Assembly (NCBI GenBank): GCA_001793235.1
Contig: MGHM01000014.1
Location: 3,857-67,856, forward strand
From: Candidatus Woesebacteria bacterium RIFCSPLOWO2_01_FULL_44_24b
GTDB lineage: Bacteria; Patescibacteriota; Microgenomatia; UBA8517
Length of the DNA: 64,000 nt
Direction: 5' to 3'
Position 1 is the stretch's first letter. Every line of letters begins with the position of its first letter. The position numbers were made by a program, and so were the translations under genes. Positions 5,365 through 44,920 of this stretch are shown one piece after another. The notes under the pieces were generated by a model that made no database searches, was not told the origin of the DNA, and saw nothing but the letters and a program-made list of their open reading frames with translations.

Positions 5365-5366
5365 AA

Positions 5367-8441: not shown

Positions 8442-9006
8442 CTTTTTAGATATAAAATTGGAAAGTCATCCCAAGAATGTTACCGTTGATTGGCTTCAAG
8501 AACTTGAGAAGTCAGGTAAATTTGCTGTGCAGGGTATTTATAAGTCCCCGACAATAGAAGGCGTGATACTAAAAGAGTTGAATGTACTAGTAGACGGAAG
8601 AGGAGACGTTATCGAATTGTGGAGCAGGCCTTGGGTTGAAAAAGAAGGTTTTGTGGTGCCCGAACATTGTTATCAAAGCGCGACCGACTTCGGTGTTACA
8701 AAATGCTGGCATCTGCATGCAATTCACACCGATCAATTCACTGTTACGAGAGGTAAACTGCAGGTACTACTTGTTGACATAAGAGAAAAGTCTCCGACCT
8801 TTGGCCACGTAAACTCTGTATTCTTGGGGACACAAAAGCCCAGGCTTCTAAAAATTCCACCCGGTATTATGCATGGATGGAAAGCATTAACCCGACCCGA
8901 AGTCATCGTGGTAAATTTTCAATCTCATGTTTATTTGGCGGAAGATGAATTTAAGTATCCCTGGAATTGTGTTTTAGAACATGCCTGGGAGCCTAATAAT
9001 GGCTAA
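8419..9006 (+). CDS. rmlC: dTDP-4-dehydrorhamnose 3,5-epimerase
   Basis: Cupin-type RmlC core: LVDGRGDVIELWS (compare FGDERGFFMETF) and a downstream histidine-containing strand. The N-terminus is uncertain; the true start may be the in-frame GTG near 8527 rather than 8419, which would give a 45 aa extension and a 23 nt overlap with rmlB. Confidence 0.7.
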   Translation: MKKPGKNNFLDIKLESHPKNVTVDWLQELEKSGKFAVQGIYKSPTIEGVILKELNVLVDGRGDVIELWSRPWVEKEGFVVPEHCYQSATDFGVTKCWHLHAIHTDQFTVTRGKLQVLLVDIREKSPTFGHVNSVFLGTQKPRLLKIPPGIMHGWKALTRPEVIVVNFQSHVYLAEDEFKYPWNCVLEHAWEPNNG

Positions 9007-22533: not shown

Positions 22534-23510
22534 TTTACAAAGAATCCAAAGCCATACTTCAGTCTATTAAACAGGCTAAAAAAATATTAATCACAAGTCA
22601 TAAGGAGCCAGATGAAGATTCGACTGGGTCGATTCTAGCCCTTAATTTGGCGCTTAAGAAGATGGGGATTTCCTCTGGCTTAATTTGCAAAGATAAGGCT
22701 CCAGAGAATTTAGAATTTCTTCCAAATATTAAGAAAATTGAATTGGTTAATTTCAAAACATTTGACTTTTCTCGATATGATTTAATGATAATACTCGATT
22801 CTTCTTCTTGGGGAATGGTGGTGGGTAGCGAGCTGAAGGACAAAAGCCCGAATATCCCAACAATAGTGATTGATCATCACGCTTCGAACCAGGCATATGG
22901 CAAATTGAATCTGATAGATATAAATGCGACTTCGGTATGCGAGATAGTTTATAAAATATTGTTTGACTGGGGTGTAAAACTTGATAAAGACATCGCGGGT
23001 AATTTGTTAGCAGGCATAACTGGTGACACTGGAAGTTTTAGATATCCATTTGTGTCTGCAGAGACATTTGAAATTGCAGCTAAGTTAATGAAAGCCGGTG
23101 CCGATCGCGACAAAATAATTTACAACTTGCTTTTTAGTGTTGAGCTTAAGGAACTGAAGTATTTATCTGAAGTTTTGAAAGAGGCGACAATCGATAAAAA
23201 AAATAAAATTATTTGGGCAGCTATACCATACAGTAAGTATGTAAAGCTCGGCAAACCGGAAGGTTCCGGGTTTGCTGGTGCATTCTTTCAAACTGTAAAA
23301 GGCACTAAGATTGGTGTTTTTATGGTTGAGAAAGAAAAGGATGTTGTTGATGTTAGTTTTCGAGCAAGGGACAAAATTGACGTTTCTAAAATTTCTGTTT
23401 CTCTCGGCGGCGGCGGGCATAAAAAGGCGGCCGGTGTGACTATTAGAAGTATGAAATTTGAGGAAGCAGTGGAGCTGGTTCTTGCAACTGCAAGAAAATA
23501 TGTAAAATAA
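22530..23510 (+). CDS. DHH/DHHA1 phosphoesterase (NrnA-like), paralog 2
   Basis: SHKEPDEDSTGS, VIDHHASN, GDTGSF and GGGGHKKAAG. ATGA overlap with paralog 1. Confidence 0.8.
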   Translation: MIYKESKAILQSIKQAKKILITSHKEPDEDSTGSILALNLALKKMGISSGLICKDKAPENLEFLPNIKKIELVNFKTFDFSRYDLMIILDSSSWGMVVGSELKDKSPNIPTIVIDHHASNQAYGKLNLIDINATSVCEIVYKILFDWGVKLDKDIAGNLLAGITGDTGSFRYPFVSAETFEIAAKLMKAGADRDKIIYNLLFSVELKELKYLSEVLKEATIDKKNKIIWAAIPYSKYVKLGKPEGSGFAGAFFQTVKGTKIGVFMVEKEKDVVDVSFRARDKIDVSKISVSLGGGGHKKAAGVTIRSMKFEEAVELVLATARKYVK

Positions 23511-24560: not shown

Positions 24561-25553
24561 GTGAATTATCCAGAATCCCAGGCCATAAAGCAAAAGATTG
24601 ATTCCTCACAAAAAATCTTAGTGAATATGCACCACAATTCGGATGCGGACTCTGTGGGAAGTGCTGTTGCTATGGCGAGGGTACTTAAATATTTTAAGAA
24701 AGATGTAAAGATAATTGCTCCAACTGAAATCCCCAAGAATTTAGAGTTCTTGTTGACGGAACAAGCGGTCAATGTAGTTAATTTTAGTGAGTTTGATTTT
24801 TCTATTTATGATTTATTTATAACACTTGATTCTTCAAGCTTTAGTCGCGTTGCCGGCTCACACAGCGTAAAACAGCCCGAACTTTCACTGATAAATATTG
24901 ATCATCATGTGAGTAACCAAAAGTTTGGGGAAATAAACTTGGTTGTTCCTGATGCCGCCGCCAACTGCGAGGTTTTATTTTATTTATTTAAAGATTGGGG
25001 AGTGGAAATAAAAGACGCCGAGGAGGCTTTGCTTACCGGAATTATAGGAGACACAGGAGCTTTTCGCTTTCCTGAGGCTGGTGGGTCCACTTTTGAAGCC
25101 GCAAGTCAGCTTATGAAGTTTGCTGATAAAAATAAAATTATATTCAATTTATATCAGTCTTTTGAGGAAAATCATGTTATGGTTTGGAAGGGGATTCTTG
25201 ATAACTTAAAAATTGACCACGAGCACCGGTTTGTTTATTCATTTGTTCGAAAGGAAGTTTTGGAGAAATATGGCAAGCCCTTTAACGCCAAAAGCGAGCT
25301 TGCAGATATGATTTTCCAGTCAATTGAAGGTACTGACTTTGGCTTGGTCGGAGCCGAAGATGAAGGTTATATTTCGGTAAGTTTTAGAAGCAGGACAGGC
25401 GTGGACGTGAGCCGTCTTGCAGGAATGCTGGGTGGCGGCGGGCACGCGTGGGCAGCGGCAGCGAGGGTAGATGTAGTAAACTATGATAATGCGGTTGAGC
25501 AAATACTTGGAGAAGCTAGGGAGTTCGCTAAGGGCGGAAGTACTAAGCCATAA
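24561..25553 (+). CDS. DHH/DHHA1 phosphoesterase (NrnA-like), paralog 3
   Basis: MHHNSDADSVGS, NIDHHVSN, GDTGAF and GGGGHAWAAAA. Confidence 0.8.
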   Translation: MNYPESQAIKQKIDSSQKILVNMHHNSDADSVGSAVAMARVLKYFKKDVKIIAPTEIPKNLEFLLTEQAVNVVNFSEFDFSIYDLFITLDSSSFSRVAGSHSVKQPELSLINIDHHVSNQKFGEINLVVPDAAANCEVLFYLFKDWGVEIKDAEEALLTGIIGDTGAFRFPEAGGSTFEAASQLMKFADKNKIIFNLYQSFEENHVMVWKGILDNLKIDHEHRFVYSFVRKEVLEKYGKPFNAKSELADMIFQSIEGTDFGLVGAEDEGYISVSFRSRTGVDVSRLAGMLGGGGHAWAAAARVDVVNYDNAVEQILGEAREFAKGGSTKP

Positions 25554-27012
25554 ATTCGTATATCTTCTTCTTGGAGTAATTTTAGTTTTAGCCTTATTTA
25601 TCAGAGTTTATAACACTGGCAAAATTCTTGGTTTTTACTACGATCAAGGCCGAGACGCTTTGGAAATATGGGAACTGCTTCATAAAGGTGACGTTTTCCT
25701 CATTGGCCCGACAACCGGTATTGCCGGCATTTTTAGGGGGCCATATTATTACTACTTGATTGCGCCTCTATATTTACTCGGTGGGGGGGACCCGGTGCTT
25801 CCCGCAAATTTTCTCGCGTTTACTACTGTAATTGCCATCGCGTTAATTTATTATCTTGGCTTTAAGTTAAAAGACAGAACAACGGGGTTGTTTGCGGCTG
25901 CTATCGCCTCGTTTTCGTTTTATATAATGCTTGCATCCCGATGGCTGAGTAACCCCACGCCCATGCTATTACTCAGCATGTTGCTTCTTTGGGCACTTTT
26001 TGCAGTCAGTGAAGGAAAGAAATATGCTTGGATAGCGGTGTCGTTGCTGGCCGGGCTCTCCCTTTTCCACTTTGGCAGCTCCGGCGAGTTCTTCTATTTT
26101 CCAGCTATAGCTCTTTTTGCCGTTTGGCAAAAGAAACATTTTCCAAATGGGAAAATCATATTTTATTCAATAGTTGCCTTTGGCTTTACCGCAGCGCCTC
26201 TAATTTTATTCGATTTTAAGAATGACCATTTATTGTCAAGAAATATTTACTCATTTATCTTTGAAAAAGAAAGTTTTAAGACTAGTTTCATGCAAGTTCT
26301 GAGTGATCGCATTGACTTTTATCAATCAGTCTTTTGGGGTAGGTTATTTCCGGGTACAAGCAGATTAATTACTTTTAGTCTATTGACTGTAGGAGTTGGC
26401 TTTTTCTTGTATCTGCCTGATTTACTCAAAAATACGAAAGCTAAAATTCTAATGCTTATGTTGTTGTCCCCGATTGTAGGACTTTTGTTTTTCCAAGGAA
26501 ATGAAGGCAATATTTATGACTACTACATGACCGGATACTATTTGATATTTATATTACTTTTTGCGGTGATATTGGGTCATCTGTGGGGGAGTGTTGCAGG
26601 CAAGATCGTGGTTTTTATATTCTTTTATGCTTTCTTTACCATGAACCTGCCGATTGTGAAGGCTAAAATTACCGACAATGCAGATGGGCCAAATACAATT
26701 CTGTTTAGAAATCAGAAGCAGGCAATTGAATGGGTGTATGGGGACGCGAAGGAAGAGTTTAATGTTGACGTTTATGTGCCGCCAGTCATTCCATATGCAT
26801 ATGATTATTTGTTCACTTGGTATGAAGGCAAACCCGAGTATTCGGGCAAAGTGAGCGACAATCGCGAATTGTTGTATACACTTTACGAGGAGGACCCGCC
26901 TCATCCGGAGAGACTGGAAGCCTGGCTTGCCCGCCAGAAGGGCATAGCCGAGGTGGAATATGCCCAAAAGTTTGGGGGTATTACAGTGGAGAGGAGAAAG
27001 AGGGTAAAATAG
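25483..27012 (+). CDS. GT-C-type membrane glycosyltransferase-like protein (subfamily 2)
   Basis: YYDQGRDALEIWELLHKGDVFLIGPTTGIAGIFRGPYYYYLIAP is a paralog of the 19978 motif. More than 10 TM helices. The start is uncertain: the ATG at 25483 overlaps the upstream gene by 71 nt. Confidence 0.55.
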   Translation: MIMRLSKYLEKLGSSLRAEVLSHKFVYLLLGVILVLALFIRVYNTGKILGFYYDQGRDALEIWELLHKGDVFLIGPTTGIAGIFRGPYYYYLIAPLYLLGGGDPVLPANFLAFTTVIAIALIYYLGFKLKDRTTGLFAAAIASFSFYIMLASRWLSNPTPMLLLSMLLLWALFAVSEGKKYAWIAVSLLAGLSLFHFGSSGEFFYFPAIALFAVWQKKHFPNGKIIFYSIVAFGFTAAPLILFDFKNDHLLSRNIYSFIFEKESFKTSFMQVLSDRIDFYQSVFWGRLFPGTSRLITFSLLTVGVGFFLYLPDLLKNTKAKILMLMLLSPIVGLLFFQGNEGNIYDYYMTGYYLIFILLFAVILGHLWGSVAGKIVVFIFFYAFFTMNLPIVKAKITDNADGPNTILFRNQKQAIEWVYGDAKEEFNVDVYVPPVIPYAYDYLFTWYEGKPEYSGKVSDNRELLYTLYEEDPPHPERLEAWLARQKGIAEVEYAQKFGGITVERRKRVK

Positions 27013-27015
27013 GGC

Positions 27016-27597
27016 ATGGCGAAGATTACAAGGCCTGCTCCCAAAAGAGCGATTCCACTTGAGGCGAAGCTAGTGTTTAAAGGCATTATTTATGAAGTTT
27101 ACCACTGGGAACAAGAGCTCTTTGATGGCACGAAGACCACTTTTGAAATGCTCAAACGCCCGGATACGGTTGAGATAATACCAATTACAAATGAAGGCAA
27201 AATCTTGATAAATTATGAGGAGCAGTCTGGCCTTGCACCGTTTATTTGTGTTCCTGGTGGGCGAGTGGATTATGGCGAAGACCCTGAGGCTGCAGCTAAA
27301 AGGGAGTTGTTGGAGGAGACCGGTTATGAAACCCATGACTTAGTATTGTGGAATGCAGCTCAACCCATGGAAAAGATTGATTGGGCGATATATATTTTTA
27401 TAGGTAAAAATTGCACAAAAGTTAATGATCCGACGTTGGAAGCGGGGGAGAAAATAGGAACGAAAGAAGTAAGTTTTGAAGAATTTGTGGAAATAGTACA
27501 GGATGATAATTTTCGAGACGAAGAAATATCACTAAGGATTTTGAAAGCGAAAGATAAGGGTAAACTAGATGAAATTAAAAGACTGTTTTTTGGTTAA
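27016..27597 (+). CDS. NUDIX hydrolase
   Basis: Nudix box GGRVDYGEDPEAAAKRELLEETGYE (Gx5Ex7REUxEExGU). Confidence 0.8.
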   Translation: MAKITRPAPKRAIPLEAKLVFKGIIYEVYHWEQELFDGTKTTFEMLKRPDTVEIIPITNEGKILINYEEQSGLAPFICVPGGRVDYGEDPEAAAKRELLEETGYETHDLVLWNAAQPMEKIDWAIYIFIGKNCTKVNDPTLEAGEKIGTKEVSFEEFVEIVQDDNFRDEEISLRILKAKDKGKLDEIKRLFFG

Positions 27598-28320
27598 ATG
27601 AGAAATCCATATCTGTCTATTATAATCCCGGCGCATAATGAGGAGCGGAGGCTCCCTAAGGCTTTTCTTGCAATTGACGATTTTTTGAAAGGGCAGAAAT
27701 ATGCGGCGGAGGTTATAGTTGTAGAAAACGGCAGTCATGATGCTACCTCACAGGTAACTAGAAAGTTTGCCAAAAAATACAAATATATAAAACTTATTGA
27801 GGTTAGCACGCGTGGCAAAGGGCTTGCCGTAAAAGCCGGCATGCTTGCGGCAAAAGGGGAGTATAGGTTTATTTGCGATGCGGATTTATCGATGCCCATA
27901 GAAGAATTGCCTAAGTTTTTGCCTCCGGAGACAAAAGGTGTGGATGTTGCGATTGGAGTGAGGGAGGGGAAAGGGGCAAATAGAGTCGGCGAGCCCTTCA
28001 AGCGGCACCTAGTGGGTAGAGCTTTTAATTTGATTATTAAGCTGACTATTTTGCCAAGTTTTGAAGACACCCAATGCGGGTTTAAGATGTTTACAGCTGG
28101 TGCCGCAAAAGAGCTCTTTAGCATTCAGAAGTTGTCCGGAATTGGTTTTGATATAGAGCTTTTATATTTGGCTCGCAAGAAAAAATTAAAAGTAAAAGAA
28201 GTGCCAATCACTTGGTATTTTGATGCAGACAGCAGGATGAGGCTTATACAGGATTCCCTTAAAGCGCTTCTTGAAATCTGGCAAATCAGAAAAGCCTGGT
28301 GGACTGGGGGGTACAAGTGA
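27598..28320 (+). CDS. GT2 polyprenyl-phosphate hexose synthase (DPM1/GtrB-like)
   Basis: LSIIIPAHNEERRLPKAF...EVIVVENGSHDATSQV...FICDADLSMP...FEDTQCGFKMF. About 240 aa, soluble. TAAATG junction with the NUDIX gene. Confidence 0.8.
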   Translation: MRNPYLSIIIPAHNEERRLPKAFLAIDDFLKGQKYAAEVIVVENGSHDATSQVTRKFAKKYKYIKLIEVSTRGKGLAVKAGMLAAKGEYRFICDADLSMPIEELPKFLPPETKGVDVAIGVREGKGANRVGEPFKRHLVGRAFNLIIKLTILPSFEDTQCGFKMFTAGAAKELFSIQKLSGIGFDIELLYLARKKKLKVKEVPITWYFDADSRMRLIQDSLKALLEIWQIRKAWWTGGYK

Positions 28321-29834
28321 CCAAAAAGTGGACACGGACAATAGTCGGACTGGTTTTAATTCTTCTGTGCGCGTTTTTGTTAAGAATTTATCAGCTTAAT
28401 TTAATTCCGGTTTTTGTGGATGAAGCAATTTATGTCCGCTGGGCGCAAGTAATGCGAGCCGAGCCATCCTTGCGGTTTTTGCCGCTTTCGGACGGCAAGC
28501 AGCCCTTGTTTATGTGGGCAGTCATTCCTTTCTTCAAGTTTATTGCTGATCCCTTGATAGCGGGGAGGGTAGTGTCTGTGTTAACTGGTCTTGGCACGAC
28601 GGCGGGCGTTGCGGCACTAGGCTACCTTTTATTTAAATCAAGAAAAGTGGCGCTCTTGGCTTCTCTACTCTATGCCCTATCCCCTTTCGCGGTGTTTTTT
28701 GACAGGATGGCACTCGTTGACTCTATGCTTTCTTTTTTTGGCGTCTGGACTTTAGTTTTTTTAATATTGGCCACGAAAAAGCTCAGTTTGGGTTTTGCCT
28801 TTTTAGCAGCTTTCGCCCTTGGAGGAGCATTATTGACCAAGTCGCCTGCCTTATTTATTGCACTCCTTTCCCCATTAGCCTTAGTTTTCACCCAAAAGGC
28901 TAAAGTAAAAAAGATTCAGAGTTTAAATTATTTTAAATCTATAGGGCTTCTTTTGGCTGTTTTCGCGGTTGCGTTCGCAATGTATAACATTCTTCGGCTT
29001 GGGGAAAATTTCCATATGATTGGTTCAAGAAACATGGACTATGTTTTCCCCTACAGCCGAATTTTAGAAAGTCCGCTGGACCCTTTATTGCCGTACCTGG
29101 ACAGGGCGGTTGAGTGGCTGGTAATTATGGGACCAGTTGCACTTTTGGGGCTCGCTGCCACTGGTTTTTTTGGCAATTTCCGGAAATACAAAATCGAAGT
29201 GTTGGTACTTTTTGCTTTTGCGGCTTTACCCATAGTTGTTCAAGCCGAGTACGCCCGGGTTTTTACTTCCAGGTACATTTTTTTTACACTCCCTGCCTTG
29301 GTGGTTCTTGCTGCTGCCAGTTTGAAAAAATTTAATAAACCTGCTGGTCTTTATGGAGTCTCTGTTTTGGTCGCCGTTTTTTTGGTGCAGTCACTTTTAT
29401 TTTATGTTGAGTTTTTCAAAAACCCAGAGAAAGCCAACTGGCCTGAGCATGATGGCTACCTTGCCGATTGGACTGCAGGGACCGGAATTAAGGAAGCAGC
29501 AGAAATTATAAAAGCCGCGCGTGATGTAAATCCGGGCAAAGATATCGTTGTGGGGACAGAGGGTTATTTTGGGACACTTCCGGACGGCCTCCAGATTTAT
29601 CTTGAAAAAGAACCCAATATAACAGTAATCGGAGTGGGGCTTGATATAAGTCATGTTCCAGATAGCCTTTCGGAGTCGGCTAAGGCGGGTAATATTACTT
29701 ATTTGGTGGCCAACTCTTCCAGGCTAGCATTTGTACGGCCGTTTGAAGAATATGGCCTGAAAATCATAAAGTCTTGGGAAAAAGCAGAAAACCGGCTCGG
29801 CAAGCGGGATGTGTTTTATATGTTTGAATTATGA
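28299..29834 (+). CDS. GT-C-type membrane glycosyltransferase (PMT/ArnT-like, loop-1 DE motif)
   Basis: PVFVDEAIYVRWAQVM carries the DE motif. About 12 TM helices and a C-terminal soluble domain. The probable start is the GTG at 28317, which forms a GTGA overlap with the GT2 stop. Confidence 0.6.
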   Translation: MDWGVQVTKKWTRTIVGLVLILLCAFLLRIYQLNLIPVFVDEAIYVRWAQVMRAEPSLRFLPLSDGKQPLFMWAVIPFFKFIADPLIAGRVVSVLTGLGTTAGVAALGYLLFKSRKVALLASLLYALSPFAVFFDRMALVDSMLSFFGVWTLVFLILATKKLSLGFAFLAAFALGGALLTKSPALFIALLSPLALVFTQKAKVKKIQSLNYFKSIGLLLAVFAVAFAMYNILRLGENFHMIGSRNMDYVFPYSRILESPLDPLLPYLDRAVEWLVIMGPVALLGLAATGFFGNFRKYKIEVLVLFAFAALPIVVQAEYARVFTSRYIFFTLPALVVLAAASLKKFNKPAGLYGVSVLVAVFLVQSLLFYVEFFKNPEKANWPEHDGYLADWTAGTGIKEAAEIIKAARDVNPGKDIVVGTEGYFGTLPDGLQIYLEKEPNITVIGVGLDISHVPDSLSESAKAGNITYLVANSSRLAFVRPFEEYGLKIIKSWEKAENRLGKRDVFYMFEL

Positions 29835-30547
29835 CAACCCCCCACCTATCACTAGTAATCCCCGCCTACAACGAAGAGGGGATAATAAAAAGTAATTTAG
29901 AGAAAGTATTAAAATTTCTTTCTAAAAAGAGTTATTTGTGGGAGATAGTGGTTGTAGATGACGGCAGCCGTGATAATACCCCGGACATTGTTAATAGTTT
30001 AAAGAAAGTTAGACTTGTTAAATTACCGGAAAATATGGGTAAGGGTGCGGCGGTGAAAGCTGGCATGCTTAAAGCTCGTGGCAAGCTAATTATTTTTATG
30101 GACGCGGATTTGTCAGTTCCACTTAATTATATTGACGTCGTTGTGAGGGCGTTGCACAGTAGCGACGTGGCTATAGGCTCAAGGAGAGTGAAAGGGTCGG
30201 TCATCAAAAAACACCAACCATTCTTACGTGAAAATATGGGCAGGGTTTTTACCAAGTTGACCCAAATAATCATCGGGAGCAAGATTGCCGATTTTACCTG
30301 CGGGTTTAAAGGTTTTACGAAGGAGGCGGCAAGCAAGGTTTTTGCGCACGGCGTAATAGATCGCTGGGCTTATGATGCTGAAATTATTTTCTTGGCGGAA
30401 AAATTTGGGCTTAAAATTACTGAAGTTCCGGTTGAGTGGATAAACAGGGAAGAGACCAGAGTAAAAGTTGGGCGTGCCACAATTGAGTCGTTAATCGACT
30501 TGGTTAAGATCAGATTTTTTGGATTGGCGGGGAAGTATGAAGACTAA
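29831..30547 (+). CDS. GT2 polyprenyl-phosphate hexose synthase (DPM1/GtrB-like)
   Basis: LSLVIPAYNEEGIIKSNL...EIVVVDDGSRDNT...IIFMDADLSVP...IADFTCGFKGF. ATGA overlap with the upstream GT-C gene. Confidence 0.8.
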   Translation: MTTPHLSLVIPAYNEEGIIKSNLEKVLKFLSKKSYLWEIVVVDDGSRDNTPDIVNSLKKVRLVKLPENMGKGAAVKAGMLKARGKLIIFMDADLSVPLNYIDVVVRALHSSDVAIGSRRVKGSVIKKHQPFLRENMGRVFTKLTQIIIGSKIADFTCGFKGFTKEAASKVFAHGVIDRWAYDAEIIFLAEKFGLKITEVPVEWINREETRVKVGRATIESLIDLVKIRFFGLAGKYED

Positions 30548-32135
30548 AATACTGCTTCTTTTGCTGACAATTCCGGCAATTATCGCATTACTTAAACCGG
30601 GCTATTTCCCGATGCATGATGACATTCAGGGAATGCGGGTCTACCAGATGTATAAGTGCGTGTTAGACCTTCAAATCCCCTGCCGTTGGGTGCCCGATAT
30701 GGGCTTTGGTTATGGCTACCCGCAATTTAATTTCTATTCCCCCCTCCCCTATTATTTGATGGAAATTCCGGTCCTTTTTGGCGGCTCAATTCTTGCAAGC
30801 GTCAAACTTGGGTTTTTGGCAAGTCTGGTTCTCTCGGCGTGGAGCATGTATCTTCTGGGCTCTTTTTTGTGGGGCAAAAAAGGCGGGGTAATTAGTGCGC
30901 TTTTTTACACTTACGCACCATATAGGGCAGTGGATATTTATGTTCGGGGAGCAATGGGCGAAGCCTGGGCCTTTGTTTTTTTGCCACTGATTTTATTGTT
31001 TACTCTAAAGCCAAAGTCCACCATTCCCCTGGCACTATCGATCGCCGGATTATTCTTGACACACAACATAACAGTTATCATGTTTTCCCCCTTTTATGTT
31101 ACCTTTGTCCTCTTCTTTAGAAAAAATCACGGTAATGATTTAAAAAATATTTTGAAGTCAGGTATTTTGGGCTTTGCCCTATCTGCCTTTTTTACTCTGC
31201 CCGCTTTCTTGGAAAAAAATTATACCCATGTTGAGTCGGTCCTCATGGGTTATTTTAATTATCTCGCGCACTTTGTTGGAGTCGGTCAGCTATTTTTGTC
31301 CACTCACTGGGGCTATGGCGTATCCTCACTTGGGGAACTGGATGGGATGTCCTTATCGGTTGGAGTTCTGCACTGGAGCATTCCTCTTTTGGTTCTTATC
31401 CTTCTTTTTTACTTAAAGAAGATCGAGGAATTTCGCAAAGTTTTAATTTTCGTGATTCTGGGTTTTCTTGCACTATTTCTTATTCATCCAAGGTCTCAAT
31501 TTATCTGGGACAACGTTTCACTGCTTTCATATATCCAGTTTCCATGGCGGTTTCTGGGTATTGCCGTCTTTTGTTTTTCACTAGCCAGTGGAGCACTGAT
31601 TAAATTAACCAACAGAAAGCTGTTAATGGTTATAACAATCTTTGTAATTCTGATTCTTATGAACGGTTCGTTTTTCAAACCGGAGAGATATGTTTACATT
31701 ACTGATGGTGAAAAGTTTTCTGGGGACAGTTGGTTGAAACAACAAACAATAAGTATCTTGGATTATTTGCCGGCAGGAGCCCAGCACCCGCCGACTTCAC
31801 CGGCTTCAAATGGGCCGAAGTTTTCAGGCGAAGTGATTTCTGGCCAAAAGGGCACGAACTGGCAGACTTGGGAACTAAATGTATATGATGAAGACAATAA
31901 GCTTGAGCTTCCTCTGTTTTATTTTCCGGGTTGGGAAGTGAAAGTGGACGGGGAGCCAGTGAAAATTGACAGCGCCAACGAACTTGGTTTAATAACTGTT
32001 GATGTCCCGTCTGGCCAACACTTGGTTGAAGCCAGACTTAAAGATACAAATTTAAGATTAATCGCGAATTTAGTAAGCTTGATTGGTCTTGGTGCTCTAG
32101 TGTTATATAGAAAAATAAAATGGTTATCGCACTAA
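30537..32135 (+). CDS. polytopic membrane protein, GYFPMHDD-family (paralog 1 of 3), putative novel GT-C-like transferase
   Basis: Conserved blocks shared with the next two ORFs: GYFPMHDDIQGMRVY, QIPCRWVPDMGFGYG, FNFYSPLPYY, YAPYRAVDIYVRGAMGEA and QFPWRFLGIAVF. About 13 TM helices and a C-terminal beta-rich soluble domain of about 140 aa. The probable start is the ATG at 30537; the listed 30519 is a TTG. Confidence 0.55.
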   Translation: MKTKILLLLLTIPAIIALLKPGYFPMHDDIQGMRVYQMYKCVLDLQIPCRWVPDMGFGYGYPQFNFYSPLPYYLMEIPVLFGGSILASVKLGFLASLVLSAWSMYLLGSFLWGKKGGVISALFYTYAPYRAVDIYVRGAMGEAWAFVFLPLILLFTLKPKSTIPLALSIAGLFLTHNITVIMFSPFYVTFVLFFRKNHGNDLKNILKSGILGFALSAFFTLPAFLEKNYTHVESVLMGYFNYLAHFVGVGQLFLSTHWGYGVSSLGELDGMSLSVGVLHWSIPLLVLILLFYLKKIEEFRKVLIFVILGFLALFLIHPRSQFIWDNVSLLSYIQFPWRFLGIAVFCFSLASGALIKLTNRKLLMVITIFVILILMNGSFFKPERYVYITDGEKFSGDSWLKQQTISILDYLPAGAQHPPTSPASNGPKFSGEVISGQKGTNWQTWELNVYDEDNKLELPLFYFPGWEVKVDGEPVKIDSANELGLITVDVPSGQHLVEARLKDTNLRLIANLVSLIGLGALVLYRKIKWLSH

Positions 32136-33784
32136 TTATTTCGGTTCTGACAGCACTCAGGCTTTTTGGGCCTGGGTACTTTCCAATGCATGACGATCTT
32201 CAGGTAATGCGGCTATATGAACTGGAAAAATGCTTCGCGGACGGCCAAATCCCCTGCCGCTGGGTGCCGGACATGAATTTCGGTTTTGGCCAGGCAATGT
32301 TTAATTTTTATAGTACCTTGCCATATTATCTCGGGGTTCTTATTCGTATAGTTTTGCCAATTTCAATTCTCACCACTGTTAAGATTCTTTTTGCGATTAG
32401 TCTTGTCGGTGGCGCATTGGGGATGTATTCCCTCTCAAGAGAATTTTTCGGGCATAGGGGAGCGATTATTGCCTCAGCCCTGTACGCGCTTGCACCATAC
32501 AGAGCGGTTAACGTTTATGTACGGGGAGCCATGGCGGAATCTTTTTCACTTGCGATACTCCCCTTTTTGTGGCTTTCAATTTATAAGGTGATTAAGGAGC
32601 CCAATTTCAAAAATTCTGCATTTGTAGCCTTGGCAGTCTGTGCACTTCTTATGACTCACAATATCTCGACATTCGTGTATTTCGGTTTTACTGCCGTGTG
32701 GACTTTGTTTTGGCTTTTTCAGAAATGTAAAACCAAAAATCTCCGGGCGCTTATTTTTAGTTCAGTCTTGGGCGTGGCGTTGGCTGGCTTTTTCATAGTT
32801 CCGGTTGCTATTGAGCAAAGCCTTGTCCAAGGCGAGCTTTTTATTTCCGATTATTCTAATTATACCGGGCACTTTACTACATTAAACCAATTATTCATAA
32901 GCCGTTTTTGGGGCTATGGGGGCTCAATTTTTGGTGAGAACGACGGCATGGCTTTTCAAGTCGGCTGGCCGCATTGGTGGGCGGCAATTTTAGTTGGTAT
33001 TTCGGCGCTTTCTCAACTAACTCGAAAAAATAGACAGAGTATTATGGTTTTGGGGTTATTGGCACTTTCCTTATTTTCTTTGTTTATGACTCACAATAAA
33101 AGCACTTTCTTGTGGGAAACTCTTCCCATGATTGCCTTTGTTCAGTTTCCATGGCGGTTTCTGGGCATTGCCGTATTTTTGCTCTCACTTGCTTCCGGCG
33201 GAATTTCAAACTTTCCGGGAAAAGTCTTTAAAAAATTACTATTTATTGCTGTCGTTATTACGGCATTAGTTTTTAATTTCGCTTATTTTAAACATGAAAG
33301 AACATATGACTGGTTGACTGATGAAATCAAGCTTTCTGGAGCCGATTTACTTGTCCAACAAGGCGCAGCTGCGCAGGATTATTTACCCGTAACAGTTGAA
33401 AGCCCGCCTCTAAACACCGCACCGGGAAAGCCTGTTTTAGTTAACGGCGAGGCAGAGCTGCCCAATCTCACTAAAACATCCAGCACCTTTTTCTTTGATG
33501 CAAACGTATCCCGGGAATCTGAGGTTGATGTCCCCATAATTTATTTTCCTAACTGGGAGGTCTATTTACTTGAGGGCCAAGGCAAGCGAATTGATGCCGC
33601 TCCCAGTGAAATCGAGGGTTTGATTAGAATTAGTCTCCCTGCGGGTAAGCACATGGTTTATGGCAAATTCGTGAGTACTCCCGCAAGAATCTTGGGTAAT
33701 GCTTTAAGTGCTAGTGCCTTTTTCATTTTAATTGCCGGCGCTGTCATTACCAATAATAAAAGAAAGTTTCTGGGGCTTGAATGA
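32120..33784 (+). CDS. polytopic membrane protein, GYFPMHDD-family (paralog 2 of 3)
   Basis: GYFPMHDDLQVMRLY, QIPCRWVPDMNFGFG, FNFYSTLPYY, APYRAVNVYVRGAMAES and QFPWRFLGIAVF. Confidence 0.55.
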   Translation: MVIALIISVLTALRLFGPGYFPMHDDLQVMRLYELEKCFADGQIPCRWVPDMNFGFGQAMFNFYSTLPYYLGVLIRIVLPISILTTVKILFAISLVGGALGMYSLSREFFGHRGAIIASALYALAPYRAVNVYVRGAMAESFSLAILPFLWLSIYKVIKEPNFKNSAFVALAVCALLMTHNISTFVYFGFTAVWTLFWLFQKCKTKNLRALIFSSVLGVALAGFFIVPVAIEQSLVQGELFISDYSNYTGHFTTLNQLFISRFWGYGGSIFGENDGMAFQVGWPHWWAAILVGISALSQLTRKNRQSIMVLGLLALSLFSLFMTHNKSTFLWETLPMIAFVQFPWRFLGIAVFLLSLASGGISNFPGKVFKKLLFIAVVITALVFNFAYFKHERTYDWLTDEIKLSGADLLVQQGAAAQDYLPVTVESPPLNTAPGKPVLVNGEAELPNLTKTSSTFFFDANVSRESEVDVPIIYFPNWEVYLLEGQGKRIDAAPSEIEGLIRISLPAGKHMVYGKFVSTPARILGNALSASAFFILIAGAVITNNKRKFLGLE

Positions 33785-35436
33785 GAAAAATTTTACTAGT
33801 TCTATTTTGTGCTTCCATACCTGCTATTTGGTATTTGGTTGCTCCGGGCGGCTATGAGCCACATGACCTTCACCATTTGGCGGATATTTATGAGATGCGA
33901 GCGGCAATATTGTCAGGGCAAATTCCACCCCGCCTAGGCCCAGATTATTTGTTTGGCATGGGTTACCCCTTATTTAATTTTTACTATGTTTTGCCTTTTT
34001 ATCTTGGAGCCTTTTTTTACGCTCTCACGGGGAGCTTGATGGCAGGCTTTAAACTCGTGTTTTTAGCATCAGTATTCGTGTCGTTAACAGGAATGTATTT
34101 TCTCCTTAGAAAGTTTTTTGGAACTTGGGCGTCCACTGCAGGCGCGATACTCTATCTATATACCCCGTTTCGTGCAGTCGAGATTTATGTCAGAGGAGCG
34201 ATAGGGGAGGCCTTGGCGCTCGCAATTCTCCCTTGGGTTTTATATTTTTTGGTTACTTTAGTCCTGCCTGCGCAGTCAGGTAAACAAACCAGCAAAAGAA
34301 ATATTGCCATATCGGCTTTCGTGTTGGTACTGTTTTATTTAGCACACAATTATTTCTTTTTATTGACCGCGCCGTTTATATTATTTTTTGTAGCAATTCT
34401 TATTTATTTTGATAAAAAGAGAAGTAAAAAAATAAAAGCAATTCTTATGACAGGAGCATTGTCTGCCGGACTTTCGGCTTTCTGGTGGCTGCCTGCATTT
34501 GCCGAATATAAATTAGTTGCATCGGGAACGCCCTTTGTCCTGATCGACCACTTCCCTTTTTTGAAACAATTAATAGTGCCGAGCTGGGGTTATGGAAGTT
34601 CGGTCTGGGGGCCATACGACGAGATCTCCTTTCAAATTGGCATAGCAAATCTGGCTGTTCTTGCTTTGGTCGTTGTAATATTCCTTAAACAAAGAAAAAG
34701 CAAAAACATTAATTTCAAAATTTCTTTATTAGCATTGCTTTCGTTTTTGGTTGTTGTGTTTATGATGAACATCCGCTCACTTTTTATTTGGAACCTGATT
34801 CCCTTCACTAACTTTATTCAGTTTCCCTGGAGGCTTCTAACACTAACTACATTTTTTACAGCATTTCTAGCAGGTTTTGTAGTTGATAATTTAGGGCCGA
34901 AGAAGCTATCAGCCATTCTACTTGCTACTTGCTCCATGCTACTTGTTTTCTTCTATTTCCGGCCAAGCAAAGTGACAAATAAAAGTGACGAAGAATATGT
35001 GAAACACTTCTTTTCAAATCCTCAGTATAGCGAGGATTATTTACAGCTACCGTTGTCGGCCTCTGAGAGATCAACAAATGCTATTACACAGAGATTTGCA
35101 ATCGAAAAGGGGCAAGTTGTCTTTGAAAATGAAATATCAAAAGTTCGCTGGAAGGCTGAGATAAGTGCAGATGAAAAGTCTGAAGTTACGGCCAGTGTTC
35201 TCAACTTCCCCGGCTGGTATGTGAAAGTGGACGGAAATACGGTCGAGACCTACCCGAGCGACCCTTACGGACAATTAACTTTTGGAGTTGACAAGGGAAC
35301 TCACGAAATCGAGCTCTATTGGGCAGAAACCAACTTGAGATTGTTGGCAGATATTATCAGTTTACTGTCGCTGGGGGTAGTTTTGATACTTATTTTACCT
35401 CGGGGTATTTATCGGGGTGCTCCAGATAAGACTTGA
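33781..35436 (+). CDS. polytopic membrane protein, GYFPMHDD-family (paralog 3 of 3, divergent motif)
   Basis: The same block order, but the first motif has degenerated to GGYEPHDLHH and the CRW block to PPRLGPDY. It retains FNFYYVLPFY, TPFRAVEIYVRGAIGEA and QFPWRLLTL. Confidence 0.5.
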   Translation: MRKILLVLFCASIPAIWYLVAPGGYEPHDLHHLADIYEMRAAILSGQIPPRLGPDYLFGMGYPLFNFYYVLPFYLGAFFYALTGSLMAGFKLVFLASVFVSLTGMYFLLRKFFGTWASTAGAILYLYTPFRAVEIYVRGAIGEALALAILPWVLYFLVTLVLPAQSGKQTSKRNIAISAFVLVLFYLAHNYFFLLTAPFILFFVAILIYFDKKRSKKIKAILMTGALSAGLSAFWWLPAFAEYKLVASGTPFVLIDHFPFLKQLIVPSWGYGSSVWGPYDEISFQIGIANLAVLALVVVIFLKQRKSKNINFKISLLALLSFLVVVFMMNIRSLFIWNLIPFTNFIQFPWRLLTLTTFFTAFLAGFVVDNLGPKKLSAILLATCSMLLVFFYFRPSKVTNKSDEEYVKHFFSNPQYSEDYLQLPLSASERSTNAITQRFAIEKGQVVFENEISKVRWKAEISADEKSEVTASVLNFPGWYVKVDGNTVETYPSDPYGQLTFGVDKGTHEIELYWAETNLRLLADIISLLSLGVVLILILPRGIYRGAPDKT

Positions 35437-35779
35437 TCTCCGGGGCATCATCCTTTACTTCAACAGTGCCAATATACTGTCTTTTTTTGAATGACCCTCT
35501 TTCTTGATTTTTCTTATTTTGTACTTCTAATAACTTTTCTTTTGAAACTTGAAGTGCCAAAAGTAAGTTGTCAATTATTTCCTGAATATCGACGAGTTCT
35601 TTTAGGAGTTCTTCACCTTCAGAATTAATCAGTTCCGATGCCTCTTCTATAATTTTCTTTTTGAGCTCATCAATATATTCTTTGTCTGAAAGCGTTTTCC
35701 AATTTGGATGGTTGCCGTTTGCGATTATCGCGTCTACAATTTTATCTCGAACAAGCTTCTCAAACTTAAACTTACGCAT
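35390..35779 (-). CDS. MazG-like all-alpha nucleoside triphosphate pyrophosphohydrolase (small)
   Basis: 129 aa. FEKLVRDKIVD...EEASELINSEGEELLKELVDIQEIID is EExxE/D-type helical metal-binding signature. Confidence 0.45.
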   Translation of the reverse strand: MRKFKFEKLVRDKIVDAIIANGNHPNWKTLSDKEYIDELKKKIIEEASELINSEGEELLKELVDIQEIIDNLLLALQVSKEKLLEVQNKKNQERGSFKKRQYIGTVEVKDDAPEIKSYLEHPDKYPEVK

Positions 35780-35816
35780 ACGATATTATATCACCAAGCT
35801 TTCATGCTACAATTTG

Positions 35817-37286
35817 AGTGTGGAAGAAGCTTTTGAGGTCCCTTTGGAGGAAGTTAAAGCTCGGGCTGTCCGTGGAGTAGTGGCTATCATGGGGCGAGGC
35901 TTTTTCATCCAGTTTGTAGCTCAAATCTCGCAATTTTTTCTTCTGGCGTTTTTGTCAGTTGAGCAAATGGGGGTTTTTTGGATAGTCTCGGCTGCAGTTG
36001 GTTTTTTAGTGTTTTTTAGCGACATTGGCCTTGCCGCGGCGCTTATTCAAAAGAAAGAAAGACCGACCAAAGAAGACTTGAGAACTACTTTTACCGTTCA
36101 ACAGGTTTTGATTATTTCACTACTTGTAATTCTCTATCTCCTTACTCCACAGCTTAGGAATCTTTATAACTTAAGCAGCGAGGGAGTGATTCTCCTTTAT
36201 GCCTTGGGCTTTTCACTTTTTCTATCTTCCTTGAAAAGCATTCCTTCGGTGCTACTTGAGCGGAAGCTTGAGTTTTCCAAGTTTATTATTCCTGATCTTC
36301 TGGAAAGTTTGGTTTATAGCTTAGTGGTGGTTTTTTTGGCTTGGAAGGGCTTTGGGATTATGAGCTTTGCTTATGCGGTAGTCGCTAGAGGGATTGTGGG
36401 AGTTGTTACTATTTATTTGCTGGAGCCATGGAGACCCGGATTTGCTTTTTCAAGAAGTTCTCTTGGGGGATTATTTAAGTTTGGAGTACCGTACCAGATA
36501 AACCAGCTTATTGCAGTTGTCAAAGACCGCGGTGTTACTCTTGCCTTGGGAGCCGTTGTTGGCACATCAGGAGTTGGCTATTTGGGAACTGCGGAGCGGG
36601 CGAGTCAGATTTCGCTGCGCCAATTTCTTGATCCTATCACCAAAGTCACTTTCCCGGCCTTTGCCCGTATGCAGGGCCATCGTGATGAGCTTGCAAATAG
36701 TGTCACCAGATCCTTGATGGTAATTACTTTCTTTGTGTTTCCCTCCGCTGTCGGCATATGGCTTACTGCGCCCTTAATAATTAAAGTCATCCCCAATTAT
36801 GCAAAATGGGAGCCGTCTTTAGTTCCTCTTGGATTTATGACGGTTAATGTTTTGTTTGCAGCTGTCACCACGCAGCTTACTAATATGCTTTCGGCAATTG
36901 GCAAAATTAAAACCGTCTCCAAGCTCATTGCCATGTGGGCAATCCTCACAATTTTATTAGTTCCAGGACTTGGGCATTTGTACGGAATAAACGGGGCAGC
37001 ACTTGGGTATGCCTTGGTCTCGTCGACTTCGGTAATCGCGATAGCCATAGCCAAGACTTATGTTAACTTTTCCCTTTCGCAAAGTGTACTAAAAACCGGG
37101 GTAGCCACTTTGGTGATGGGAGCCGTAGTTGCCGTTTCGCGGCTGTTCGCACCACCTACGCTTCCGGCATTGGTAGTTGTTATCACGATGGGAGCGATTA
37201 GCTACCTAGCCACTTCATATGCGCTACTGGGCAACGCTCTAATTTTAGATGCTAGAAAATTTGCGAAAAACTTTTTCAATAGGTAG
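35817..37286 (+). CDS. polysaccharide biosynthesis protein / oligosaccharide flippase (MOP superfamily, Wzx-like)
   Basis: 12-14 TM helices. The N-terminal KARAVRGVVAIMGRGFFIQFVAQISQFFLLAFLSVEQMGVF is typical of Wzx/PST family openings. The start is taken at the in-frame GTG at 35817, because the listed 35661 start would overlap the divergent minus-strand gene. Confidence 0.6.
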   Translation, partial: SVEEAFEVPLEEVKARAVRGVVAIMGRGFFIQFVAQISQFFLLAFLSVEQMGVFWIVSAAVGFLVFFSDIGLAAALIQKKERPTKEDLRTTFTVQQVLIISLLVILYLLTPQLRNLYNLSSEGVILLYALGFSLFLSSLKSIPSVLLERKLEFSKFIIPDLLESLVYSLVVVFLAWKGFGIMSFAYAVVARGIVGVVTIYLLEPWRPGFAFSRSSLGGLFKFGVPYQINQLIAVVKDRGVTLALGAVVGTSGVGYLGTAERASQISLRQFLDPITKVTFPAFARMQGHRDELANSVTRSLMVITFFVFPSAVGIWLTAPLIIKVIPNYAKWEPSLVPLGFMTVNVLFAAVTTQLTNMLSAIGKIKTVSKLIAMWAILTILLVPGLGHLYGINGAALGYALVSSTSVIAIAIAKTYVNFSLSQSVLKTGVATLVMGAVVAVSRLFAPPTLPALVVVITMGAISYLATSYALLGNALILDARKFAKNFFNR

Positions 37287-38913
37287 AAAAGCACTTCTCT
37301 TAATAGTCGCTGGAAGCTTGGCTTGGGCTTTGACTATGGTTAAAAGCGGTCTTCGATATGATTACGGCGTTGGTTTTTGGGGACCGAATGGTCATGATGG
37401 AGTATGGCACTTGTCCCTTGCTCGTTCTCTGGCAAGCGGCAGCCTTGAAATGCCGATATTTGCGGGGGAGCAAATAAAAAATTATCACTTAGGGTTTGAC
37501 CTGTTACTTGCTTTAGTTAATAGAATTACCGCACTACCGGTTTCAGTTTTATATTTCCAAATATTCCCACCGATTATGGCAATATTTATTGGTTTCTTAA
37601 CTTATAAGTTTGTTTTGAATTGGAAAAAGTCCCAAGCCGCTGCTTTTTGGAGTACTTTTTTTGTTTATTTTGGAGGAAATTTGGGGTGGATTTTAACACT
37701 ATTGAAAGGTGGGGGACTTGGAGGTGAATCAGTTTTCTGGGCCCAGCCTGCAATTCTGACTTTAATAAATCCGCCATACGCGATGTCTTTGGTATTTATT
37801 CTTTTGGGTTTAAACTTGATGATTAGGTTAAAAATAATTCCTTCGGCAATTGTTTTTGGTCTTCTGATACAAATCAAAGCTTACGCCGGAATTATTTTAC
37901 TTGGGGCACTGTTACCCCTGGCTTTATATGAGTATTGGAAAAAGCACACTTTTAATTATCTAAAACTGTTAGTAATTTCTTGTGTAATATCTTTTGTGAT
38001 TTTCCTACCAAACCTTACTTCAGGATCACTTTTGGAATTTAAACCTTTCTGGTTTTTGGAAACCATGATGAGTTTTCCTGATAGGGTTGGCTGGAGCCAG
38101 TTCGGTGAAGCAATGGTGAATTACCGACTCGGGGGTCAATGGTTGAAAGCATTTGCTGCTTATGGAATTGCACTCTTAATTTTTTGGTATGGCAATTTGG
38201 GGACTAGATTTGTTGACGAATTTTACTGGGTAAAAATTATTAAGAGTAAAAAACTGGAGCTCATAGATGTATTTATTGGCTCGGCGATAGTCATTGGTTT
38301 ACTTGGGGCGATGCTTTTTGTTCAAAAGGGAACAGCGTGGAACACGATACAGTTTTATTATTATTCACTCTTTTTTGTGTCAATTATAGCCGGAGTAGTC
38401 TTTGCCAAGATTAAGACTAATTTATTAGTCGCTGGGGCCTTAATTTTTATGCTTCCGACTACTGTTGGGGCACTTAAGCACTATCTGCCCTCTCGCCCGC
38501 CGGCTATGATATCAAACGACGAGCTTGATGCATTGGAGTTTTTATCGAATCAGCCAAAGGGAGTGGTTTTGGTTATGCCGTTTGACCGCCAAGCGGCGTC
38601 AGACGCTGCCGACAATCCTCCACGGCCACTTTATTTATACGAGTCCACTGCTTATGTTTCAGCCTATTCCAGCCAACCGGTTTGGCTTGAAGATGAGGTT
38701 AATTTGGACATCACAGGCTACGACTGGCAAGCCCGCCGTAAAAAACTTGTGGGGATGTTAAAAAGGAATAATCAAAGTGAAATGAAAGAGTTTTTGCGAG
38801 AAGAGAATATTTCCTACGTATATGTGGTTGAGCCTGGCAATATCGTTTTCGAGGGTCTCACCAAGCAGTATAGCGAGAATGGTGTGAGAATATACAAATT
38901 AGGCTACAATTGA
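37249..38913 (+). CDS. polytopic membrane protein (possible oligosaccharide polymerase / GT-C-like)
   Basis: About 14 TM helices in the first 400 aa and a C-terminal soluble domain of about 150 aa. It sits between a flippase and a run of GT2 genes. No definable motif. Confidence 0.45.
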   Translation: MLENLRKTFSIGRKALLLIVAGSLAWALTMVKSGLRYDYGVGFWGPNGHDGVWHLSLARSLASGSLEMPIFAGEQIKNYHLGFDLLLALVNRITALPVSVLYFQIFPPIMAIFIGFLTYKFVLNWKKSQAAAFWSTFFVYFGGNLGWILTLLKGGGLGGESVFWAQPAILTLINPPYAMSLVFILLGLNLMIRLKIIPSAIVFGLLIQIKAYAGIILLGALLPLALYEYWKKHTFNYLKLLVISCVISFVIFLPNLTSGSLLEFKPFWFLETMMSFPDRVGWSQFGEAMVNYRLGGQWLKAFAAYGIALLIFWYGNLGTRFVDEFYWVKIIKSKKLELIDVFIGSAIVIGLLGAMLFVQKGTAWNTIQFYYYSLFFVSIIAGVVFAKIKTNLLVAGALIFMLPTTVGALKHYLPSRPPAMISNDELDALEFLSNQPKGVVLVMPFDRQAASDAADNPPRPLYLYESTAYVSAYSSQPVWLEDEVNLDITGYDWQARRKKLVGMLKRNNQSEMKEFLREENISYVYVVEPGNIVFEGLTKQYSENGVRIYKLGYN

Positions 38914-39818
38914 TGTGTATGGGCAAGATTTCGGTGGTTATTAATACCCTAAATGAAGAGGAGAACTTGCCACGAGCTTTGAAGTCAGTTAAAGACTGGG
39001 CAGGCGAGATTGTGGTCGTGGATATGCACTCTGACGACAAAACCGTAGAAATAGCCAAAAAGTATGGAGCTAGGGTGTTTACTCATAAAAAAACCGGCTA
39101 TGTTGAGCCCGCAAGGAACTACGCGATAACAAAAGCCACCTGTGAGTGGATATTGGTTTTAGATGCCGACGAGGAAATCCCTGACAGTTTGGCGAGAAAA
39201 CTAACTGAGCTAAAAGATAATGATAGTATCTCATATTATGCAGTCCCGCGGAAGAATATAGTTTTTGACAAATGGCTTACCCACTCTAGATGGTGGCCGG
39301 ATCGAAACATTCGGTTTTTCAAAAAGGGTGCAGTTGAGTGGGCACGCGAAATTCATTCGGTTCCCCTGACTCATGGAAAAGGTGCGGACATTGACGCCAT
39401 TGAGGATTTGGCAATAGTTCATCATCACTACAGTTCAGTATCTCAATATATTAAGCGGCACGACAGATACTCAACGATTATGGCAAAGGAGAAATATAAA
39501 AACGGTGAGAAATTCAATTGGAAACTGCTTATTTCCAAACCGGTAGGCGAGTTTTTGAGCCGGTACTTTGCCGGCGAAGGTTATAAAGATGGCGTGCATG
39601 GTTTGGTGCTCTCAACCCTTCAGGCTTTTGTAGAATTTCTGATCTACGTCAAGCTCTGGGAAATGCACAAGTTTCCTGAAAGGGAAATCTCTTTAGTTGA
39701 AATTATTAATGAGTTAAAAACATCGCAAAAAGAGATTAACTATTGGACAGCGGACACGATGGTTCGTGAAAATGGAGGCTTAGTTAATCAAATCAAAAGG
39801 AAGTTTAAGCTCCCATGA
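38910..39818 (+). CDS. family-2 glycosyltransferase (paralog group with 40705 and 56696)
   Basis: ISVVINTLNEEENLPRALKSVKDWAGEIVVVDMHSDDKTVEIAKKYGARVF...LVLDADEEIP (DXD). ATGA overlap. Confidence 0.75.
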   Translation: MMCMGKISVVINTLNEEENLPRALKSVKDWAGEIVVVDMHSDDKTVEIAKKYGARVFTHKKTGYVEPARNYAITKATCEWILVLDADEEIPDSLARKLTELKDNDSISYYAVPRKNIVFDKWLTHSRWWPDRNIRFFKKGAVEWAREIHSVPLTHGKGADIDAIEDLAIVHHHYSSVSQYIKRHDRYSTIMAKEKYKNGEKFNWKLLISKPVGEFLSRYFAGEGYKDGVHGLVLSTLQAFVEFLIYVKLWEMHKFPEREISLVEIINELKTSQKEINYWTADTMVRENGGLVNQIKRKFKLP

Positions 39819-44916: not shown

Positions 44917-44920
44917 GGTT

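Follow-up and report, generated by a model that had tools for sequence, protein, structure and literature searches.

A stretch of 64,000 nucleotides (nt) from Candidatus Woesebacteria bacterium RIFCSPLOWO2_01_FULL_44_24b (contig MGHM01000014.1, positions 3,857 to 67,856), called the window below, carries three adjacent and related genes for large membrane proteins, which we call C1, C2 and C3. What do these proteins do, and how did the three copies arise? A preliminary description of the DNA had proposed a tandem triplication in a candidate new family resembling the C-fold glycosyltransferases (GT-C), with a third copy that had lost its acidic motif. Our reading, to which we would give a probability of about 0.7, is that C1 to C3 are three catalytically competent, anciently diverged GT-C paralogs of PF10131/YfhO-like type, which decorate one surface glycan from polyprenyl-linked sugars. 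Most likely all three are active transferases that depend on polyprenyl-phosphate sugars and differ in specificity.

The three paralogs

The three open reading frames (ORFs) follow one another on the plus strand. C1 (30537-32135, 532 amino acids) is read from ATG 30537, a plausible start because a Shine-Dalgarno-like stretch, GGGGAAG, stands just 5' of it; the ORF itself opens at TTG 30519. C2 (32120-33784, 554 amino acids) is the copy that was modelled, and C3 (33781-35436, 551 amino acids) has a variant motif in its first loop. The coding sequences overlap by 11 nt between the preceding GT2 gene and C1, by 16 nt between C1 and C2 and by 4 nt between C2 and C3. We thus find the consecutive plus-strand ORFs of about 540 residues that had been described, and every motif block quoted for them is present in the same sequence of blocks: GYFPMHDD[IL]Q, QIPCRWVPDM.FG[YF]G, FNFY, APYRAV..YVRGA..E and QFPWRFLG. 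In pairwise BLASTP C1 and C2 are 38% identical (E 2e-120), C1 and C3 33% (E 8e-79) and C2 and C3 29% (E 3e-63), which is far above chance.

Between the genes, DNA alignment is confined to the best-conserved motif segments, which are 40-80 nt long at 75-78% and lie 1607 and 1676 nt apart in the array, and the copies must therefore be old. This DNA repeat search gave no recent duplication or gene-conversion tracts. In a neighbour-joining tree of homologs the copies from positions 1, 2, 3 and 4 of such arrays form separate clades, with C1 in the position-1 clade, and since the same order is found in many genomes we take the positions to be ancient orthologous groups and not products of local triplication. 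A recent, lineage-specific triplication is rejected on the tree clades, the recurring order and the repeat search. The tandem triplication of the preliminary description thus stands as an ancient event but not as a recent one, the separate clades and the common order extending across Microgenomates.

Fold and topology

The AlphaFold2 model of C2, built on an alignment of 121 sequences, has a pLDDT of 94.5 and a pTM of 0.94. A Foldseek search of the PDB matched it at a probability of about 1 to AftD, AglB, STT3, EmbA/B/C, ArnT, PglB, Pmt4, ALG9/12 and DPY19, and in all more than 30 GT-C structures were matched at a probability near 1 (TMq 0.27-0.47). The best is AftD (6w98, E 8e-6, TMq 0.47), and on this model the array proteins are nearest in structure to AftD and the group of oligosaccharyltransferases (OST), Emb proteins and ArnT. 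A PDB search by sequence, with C2 and with the family profile, gave nothing meaningful. However, hhalign of the array family against the ten PMT_2 paralogs of the window gave a probability of 98.2% (E 2.9e-14) from transmembrane (TM) helix TM1 to about TM7, with the His-Asp of the family two columns from the PMT "DE", and R135 (in C2 numbering, as throughout) of YVRGAxxE on a conserved PMT_2 Arg.

The GT-C fold that had been suggested is thus borne out. The preliminary description had set it against a transporter fold, and weak Foldseek matches to the major facilitator superfamily proteins GLUT3 and YajR could be taken to favour transport, or some other function of a protein with many TM helices. 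However these matches have probabilities of 0.2-0.47 and TM-scores of about 0.1, and the confident matches are solely to GT-C enzymes. In addition the Pfam matches fall in the GT-C clan, the profile comparison with PMT_2 agrees with them, and the gene context is entirely one of glycosylation. A transporter fold is rejected on the Foldseek result, and we regard a function other than glycosyl transfer as extremely improbable.

From the helices of the C2 model and the charged residues we would place the N-terminus in the cytoplasm, followed by about 11 TM helices, an external domain and a final TM helix that returns to the cytoplasm, and all conserved polar residues would then lie in external loops. 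In the model the external domain has about 130 residues (390-520), with two helices followed by a beta-sandwich. The count of about 13 TM helices given earlier becomes about 11 and one more in this reading; the C-terminal beta-rich domain proposed with it is there, but in each paralog it is followed by a further TM helix (521-545 in C2).

D25, the first Asp of the HDD motif, is 9 residues after TM1 in the model, and R346 of QFPWR opens the helix 344-364, which we count as TM10. In GT-C enzymes the Arg before TM10 binds the donor phosphate (PMC7801869), and in our topology D25 and R346 would match the published Asp of the first external loop (EL1) and the pre-TM10 Arg. The earlier proposal of an acidic residue where GT-C enzymes carry their catalytic Asp or Glu is supported, as D25 lies in the first external loop and is at the PMT "DE" or at most two columns from it.

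Family placement

C2 and C3 match Pfam PF10131 (PTPS_related) with 44.3 and 60.6 bits against a gathering score of 26.4, in both cases over the TM domain (residues about 61-400). C1 has no match to this model at E <= 0.01, and is a member by transitive homology because of its 38% identity to C2. NCBIfam has no match for any of the three. Nearly all homologs carry the PF10131 label, and NCBI names some of them accordingly; for homologs we used these precomputed Pfam labels. PTPS_related stands for 6-pyruvoyl-tetrahydropterin synthase-related membrane protein (Pfam PF10131), and the family is listed in the Pfam GT-C clan CL0111 as being of "function unknown" (PMC7801869). The profile of the array family finds 21,305 clusters (50% identity) at E <= 1e-3, and 7,368 at E <= 1e-30. 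The preliminary description was therefore right on fold class but wrong on novelty: the proteins it could not place in a named Pfam include two above the PF10131 gathering score, and its candidate new family is a large one that is already catalogued. In the literature searched we found no functional study of PF10131/PTPS_related, nor one in the literature searched on GT-C enzymes of the Candidate Phyla Radiation (CPR) and on envelope glycosylation in Patescibacteria.

The preliminary description had also guessed at a likeness to YfhO, and this is supported. The C-terminal beta domain of C1 (residues 447-504) matches Pfam YfhO (PF09586) with 36.6 bits (gathering score 28.5), though only at model positions 764-820 of 835, and the TM domain of a homolog, P0241, matches positions 55-401. 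In YfhO as in the array proteins the external domain is followed by a terminal TM helix, and both are paired with a GT2, which in the case of YfhO makes the lipid-phosphate sugar (PMC8035078). The CsbB/GtcA/YfhO and related systems consist of a GT-A enzyme, a flippase and a GT-C enzyme (PMC8035078). CsbB/GtcA/YfhO adds GlcNAc to lipoteichoic acid in B. subtilis and S. aureus or to wall teichoic acid in Listeria. However the array proteins have about 540 residues, whereas the model is 835 positions long; the YfhO region between model positions of about 400 and 760 is missing from them, and they do not match the full-length model with its large external region. As they match only parts of the model, we treat the array as a sister family that is YfhO-like and not as YfhO proper. 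Further differences are that no GtcA gene adjoins the array, and that the host is a CPR bacterium without known teichoic acid. Of the partners of YfhO, a GT2 of the right class is adjacent to the array; no stand-alone GtrA gene is nearby, and the one GtrA_DPMS_TM domain is part of the GT2 encoded at 15750-16925.

The first external loop and the status of C3

The HDD motif is at 30615-30623 in C1 and 32189-32197 in C2, and C3 has EPHDLHH at 33856-33876. Among the 119 matches of the C2 search HDD is found in 117, which are all of those of full length, the other two being truncated at the N-terminus. For a wider view we counted residues in 131 representatives of 50%-identity clusters and in 118 C3-type proteins.

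The first Asp, D25, is present in 129 of the 131 representatives, in all 118 C3-type proteins and in every full-length C2-type homolog. R47 is likewise found in 129 representatives and 118 C3-type proteins. R135, E140 and R346 are each found in 130 representatives and W345 in 131, and all four in 118 of 118 C3-type proteins; H180 is in 131 and 116 respectively, and H24 in 109 and 98. D51 is kept in 118 and H251 in 116 of the C3-type proteins. The second Asp, D26, is quite different, being present in 71 of the 131 representatives and none of the C3-type proteins, where it is Leu in 113 and Phe in 5. Its commonest replacements in the representatives give HDN, HDE, HDF, HDY and HDA. Conservation of HDD across homologs, which the preliminary description had wished to see mapped, thus holds for the first Asp and fails for the second.

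These counts bear directly on C3, which was thought to have lost the motif and hence to be neofunctionalised or a non-catalytic partner. In an extended form the proposal would make C3 a dead enzyme that acts as a non-catalytic partner or as a lectin-like holder of the acceptor. It can draw on the Leu that replaces the second Asp in nearly all C3-type proteins, and on the absence of the Cys pair of the first loop (C38, C46), a pair that C1, C2 and the single-copy types all have: in C3-type proteins C38 is Ala, Ser or Gly and C46 is Pro in 116 of 118. Other C3-specific changes are Q28H, Y69F, F224Y and H325N. However C3 itself keeps the His-Asp, as well as R47, D51, R135, E140, H180, H251, W345 and R346, and only the second Asp has gone, a residue that is variable across the family. 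Of the EL1 pair, at least the first Asp is found throughout the GT-C enzymes and is the only one common to all of them (PMC7801869), and as the first Asp alone is invariant in this family and is retained in C3, the acidic centre of C3 has not been lost. More distant position-3 orthologs have G-A-S-D-D, with both Asp residues. The closer C3 orthologs share their own motif, G[GF]YEP[HQS]DLHH, and the strong conservation of EPHDLHH indicates selection on the loop and not decay. We think it quite improbable that C3 is a dead enzyme. C3 as a decayed copy is rejected, the loop being conserved in orthologs and the core residues kept, and judged by its sequence C3 is a diverged and constrained subfamily of enzymes.

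Distribution, copy number and fusions

C3 is 100% identical to "hypothetical protein A2803_02635" of Candidatus Woesebacteria bacterium RIFCSPHIGHO2_01_FULL_44_21, and the product of the ORF downstream of it is also 100% identical to a protein of that genome, annotated as hypothetical. Species-representative genomes yielded 552 relatives when scanned, and the best 79 of these were used for locus counts and synteny. Those of the 79 that have titled records belong to the Microgenomates (Woese-, Davies-, Collier-, Blackburn- and Shapirobacteria). Several relatives have "uncultured Gammaproteobacteria" titles that look like placeholder labels.

There is a single family gene in 38 of the 79 loci, and tandem arrays of two in 13, three in 22 and four in 6. 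Fusions are also found in public data. A family member is fused to a GT2 of the type encoded at 29831-30547 in P0282, L054 and L071, and to a second GT2 type, like that of 44870-45724, in P0258, P0269, P0297, P0306, L034 and L048. P0241 and P0242 are head-to-tail fusions of two family units; P0241 has 1093 amino acids, with an N-terminal half like C1 or C2 and a C-terminal half like C3 but with "SDD". Head-to-tail fusions of several GT-C units include a protein of 3329 amino acids with six matched stretches, and P0244 and P0248 are also among the fusions. Some such proteins could be artefacts of gene calling or assembly.

This raises the question of whether the three paralogs, four in some genomes, form an obligate hetero-oligomeric GT-C machine like EmbA-EmbB or Pmt1-Pmt2, with C3 as a specialised subunit that might or might not be catalytic. 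The order C1-C2-C3 is conserved, and the coding overlaps of 16 and 4 nt suggest coupled expression. The two-unit fusions fit the idea, the N-in/C-in topology predicted above would permit them, and there is a solved heteromer of GT-C paralogs, EmbA-EmbB (7bvc), among the fold matches. However the many loci with a single gene indicate that one copy can work alone, the make-up and order of arrays vary (C1-C3-GT2-C2 in L018 and L021, and two or four copies elsewhere), and P0241 and P0242 may be among the artefacts. We regard an obligate hetero-oligomer as possible but unlikely, and prefer three enzymes each competent in its own right.

Three features may be new as far as the literature searched goes: the array of three or four paralogs with first-loop motifs specific to each subfamily (for three paralogs we found no such array there), the GT2 fusions of family members, and the conserved cluster described below with its Pfam-less OST-like GT-C.

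Gene neighbourhood

The array directly follows a gene for a DPM1/GtrB/ArnC-like GT2 (29831-30547, plus strand, 238 amino acids, no TM tail; Pfam Glycos_transf_2, 2e-34), as the preliminary description had seen. Its closest solved relatives are DPMS (5mlz, 9e-16), GtrB (5ekp) and ArnC, which are polyprenyl-phosphate sugar synthases, and by this likeness it is presumed to supply the donor; the fusions of family members to a GT2 of this type point the same way. Further upstream, on the same strand, are a PMT/PMT_2-type GT-C with "VDEA" as its first-loop motif (28299-29834) and a second DPM1-like GT2 (27598-28320) that is a conserved member of the cluster. Across genomes the gene next upstream of the array is most often a PMT-type GT-C (49 of 79 loci), and a DPM1-like GT2 of the 29831 type takes this place in 11; in the window this GT2 separates the PMT-type GT-C from C1.

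Downstream is a Wzx/MOP-family flippase (35661-37286, plus strand; Polysacc_synt_3, 4e-50, and the NCBIfam MOP flippase), and a Wzx gene is the downstream neighbour in 48 of the 79 loci. Between C3 and Wzx a minus-strand ORF (35390-35779, 129 amino acids, no Pfam match) runs across the final 47 nt of C3 and takes in the nominal TTG start of the Wzx ORF, whose true start is probably further downstream. If real, the minus-strand ORF is the 3' limit of the C1-C3 transcription unit. Minus-strand ORFs are few in this mostly plus-strand region, others being at 14471-15145 and 18095-19252. A promoter and terminator scan of 27000-39000 gave fewer sites than shuffled sequence does, and is therefore uninformative on operon limits.

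The order that recurs in Woese-, Davies- and Collierbacteria and other Microgenomates is (PMT_2), DPM1-like GT2, PMT-type GT-C, (second DPM1-like GT2), C1, C2, C3, (C4), Wzx, an unannotated protein of 554 amino acids, three GT2 genes and a GT4.

In the window the unannotated protein is encoded at 37249-38913 on the plus strand, and it has no match in Pfam or NCBIfam. Its AlphaFold2 model (pLDDT 90.7) identifies it as a GT-C-fold protein of the OST-like type, the best Foldseek matches being STT3 (6e-8), AglB and PglB (E 6e-8 to 4e-5), followed by DPY19, AftA and ArnT, and hhalign against the PMT_2 paralogs gave 94.8%. We found 1371 homologs, about 50% identical across Patescibacteria and nearly all without a Pfam label (one has PF01757). 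The family has an invariant "GPNGHDG" in the first loop, and its usual position is directly after Wzx. Judging from the model it seems to represent an OST-like GT-C family that has not been catalogued, and it may be more novel than the PF10131 array.

Comparison with other GT-C systems

Among characterised systems the embCAB/AftD group of mycobacterial arabinosyltransferases offers several parallels. AftD is the best structural match, and the Emb proteins are paralogous GT-C enzymes that use a polyprenyl-phosphate sugar as donor, have C-terminal external carbohydrate-binding domains, and form complexes, EmbA-EmbB (7bvc) and EmbC2 (7bve). embCAB also comprises three adjacent genes. However Emb and AftD proteins have 1000-1400 amino acids, and no sequence similarity to the array proteins is detectable. 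With PMT_2/ArnT there is homology from TM1 to about TM7, and both have an acidic motif in the first loop and a conserved Arg after TM3, but the C-terminal half and external domain are unlike those of the array proteins, and the motifs are DE and SRxAxEPN in place of HDD, PCRWxPD, YVRGAxxE and QFPWR.

The AglD/AglR/AglS step in the N-glycosylation of Haloferax volcanii follows a similar logic: the lipid phosphate receives one sugar from a GT2, flipping is aided by a Wzx-like protein, and outside the cell a membrane transferase passes the sugar to a glycan that an OST has already delivered (PMC3871713). In the window, too, genes for a GT2, a Wzx and an OST-like GT-C are close to the array, and the likeness is a functional analogy only.

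A proposed scheme

We suggest a multi-component transmembrane glycosylation, for which the CsbB/GtcA/YfhO type of system (PMC8035078) and the AglD/AglR/AglS step (PMC3871713) are functional precedents. A cytoplasmic DPM1-like GT2 (29831-30547 and/or 27598-28320) would load a monosaccharide onto polyprenyl phosphate, and the lipid-linked sugar would be flipped across the membrane, candidates for this step being Wzx and a GT2 with a GtrA domain encoded at 15750-16925. On the outer face each paralog would then transfer its sugar to the acceptor glycan. The invariant first-loop Asp (D25 in C2) would be the catalytic residue or one that binds the acceptor or a metal, R47, R135 and R346 (of QFPWR) would be ligands of the donor phosphate, and the beta-sandwich domain near the C-terminus would be the binding site of the glycan acceptor. 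The first-loop motifs, HDD with the Cys pair in C1 and C2 and EPHDLHH without it in C3, would set the specificity for donor, acceptor or linkage, and with these differing motifs and specificities the enzymes would add successive or alternative sugars to one surface glycan. Assembly and export of that glycan would fall to the neighbouring cytoplasmic GT2 and GT4 enzymes, Wzx and the OST-like GT-C.

A more ambitious proposal is that Microgenomates have a conserved machine for envelope glycosylation, defining for the lineage and made up of the PF10131 array, the PMT-type GT-C, Wzx and the OST-like GT-C, with the paralogs acting as a coupled hetero-oligomer and the HDLHH loop of C3 as a distinct metal or acceptor site. 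We put this forward as speculative, with the odds well against it. Such a machine could be a general protein-glycosylation or secondary cell-wall polymer system.

The rest of the window

There are at least 16 GT-C-fold genes in the 64-kb window. Eleven are of PMT/PMT_2 type, starting at 9932, 19978, 25483, 28299, 42494, 45721, 47130, 50094, 51646, 53366 and 55036, and a weak GT87/PIG-U-like gene is at 48763-50094; the others are the three PF10131 genes and the gene for the OST-like protein. The density of GT-C genes from 9932 to 56694 is extraordinary, and nearly all glycosylation genes are on the plus strand. The window also has about a dozen GT2 genes, two GT4, two Wzx-type flippases (35661 and 58573) and rmlABCD (6577-9892). 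The gene at 15750-16925 (plus strand), in which a GT2 is fused to a GtrA/DPMS TM domain (PF04138), is the sole GtrA-like element seen in the window, and is a candidate for flipping or handling polyprenyl-phosphate sugars.

Just upstream of the glycosylation cluster are three paralogous DHH/DHHA1 phosphoesterase genes on the plus strand (21550-22533, 22530-23510 and 24561-25553), a second cluster of paralogs in the window; a homolog of the gene at 24561 is also upstream of the cluster in L001. At 742-1194 and 1650-4577 (plus strand) a type IV pilin-like protein with an N-terminal methylation motif is near secreted-type proteins with PA14, VWA-like and CAP domains. These products are possible surface proteins, and as such candidate targets for glycosylation. 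ORFs without a Pfam match are at 60610-62547 (plus, 645 amino acids; no NCBIfam match either), 5328-6554 (plus, 408), 17213-18103 (plus, 296) and 18095-19252 (minus, 385).

Significance

As a discovery the array is modest, the fold class and the family both being catalogued already, but the trio is old and kept across genomes. PF10131 is a very large family (more than 21,000 clusters at 50% identity) to which no function has been assigned, and we offer D25, R47, D51, R135, E140, H180, H251 and R346 as a set of residues for mutation. The array provides a natural set of diverged paralogs, in a conserved neighbourhood, with which to seek donor and acceptor. The CPR/Patescibacteria are mostly uncultivated and to our knowledge essentially nothing is established of their envelope chemistry, and in this bacterium a large share of a small genome is spent on extracytoplasmic glycosylation that depends on lipid carriers.

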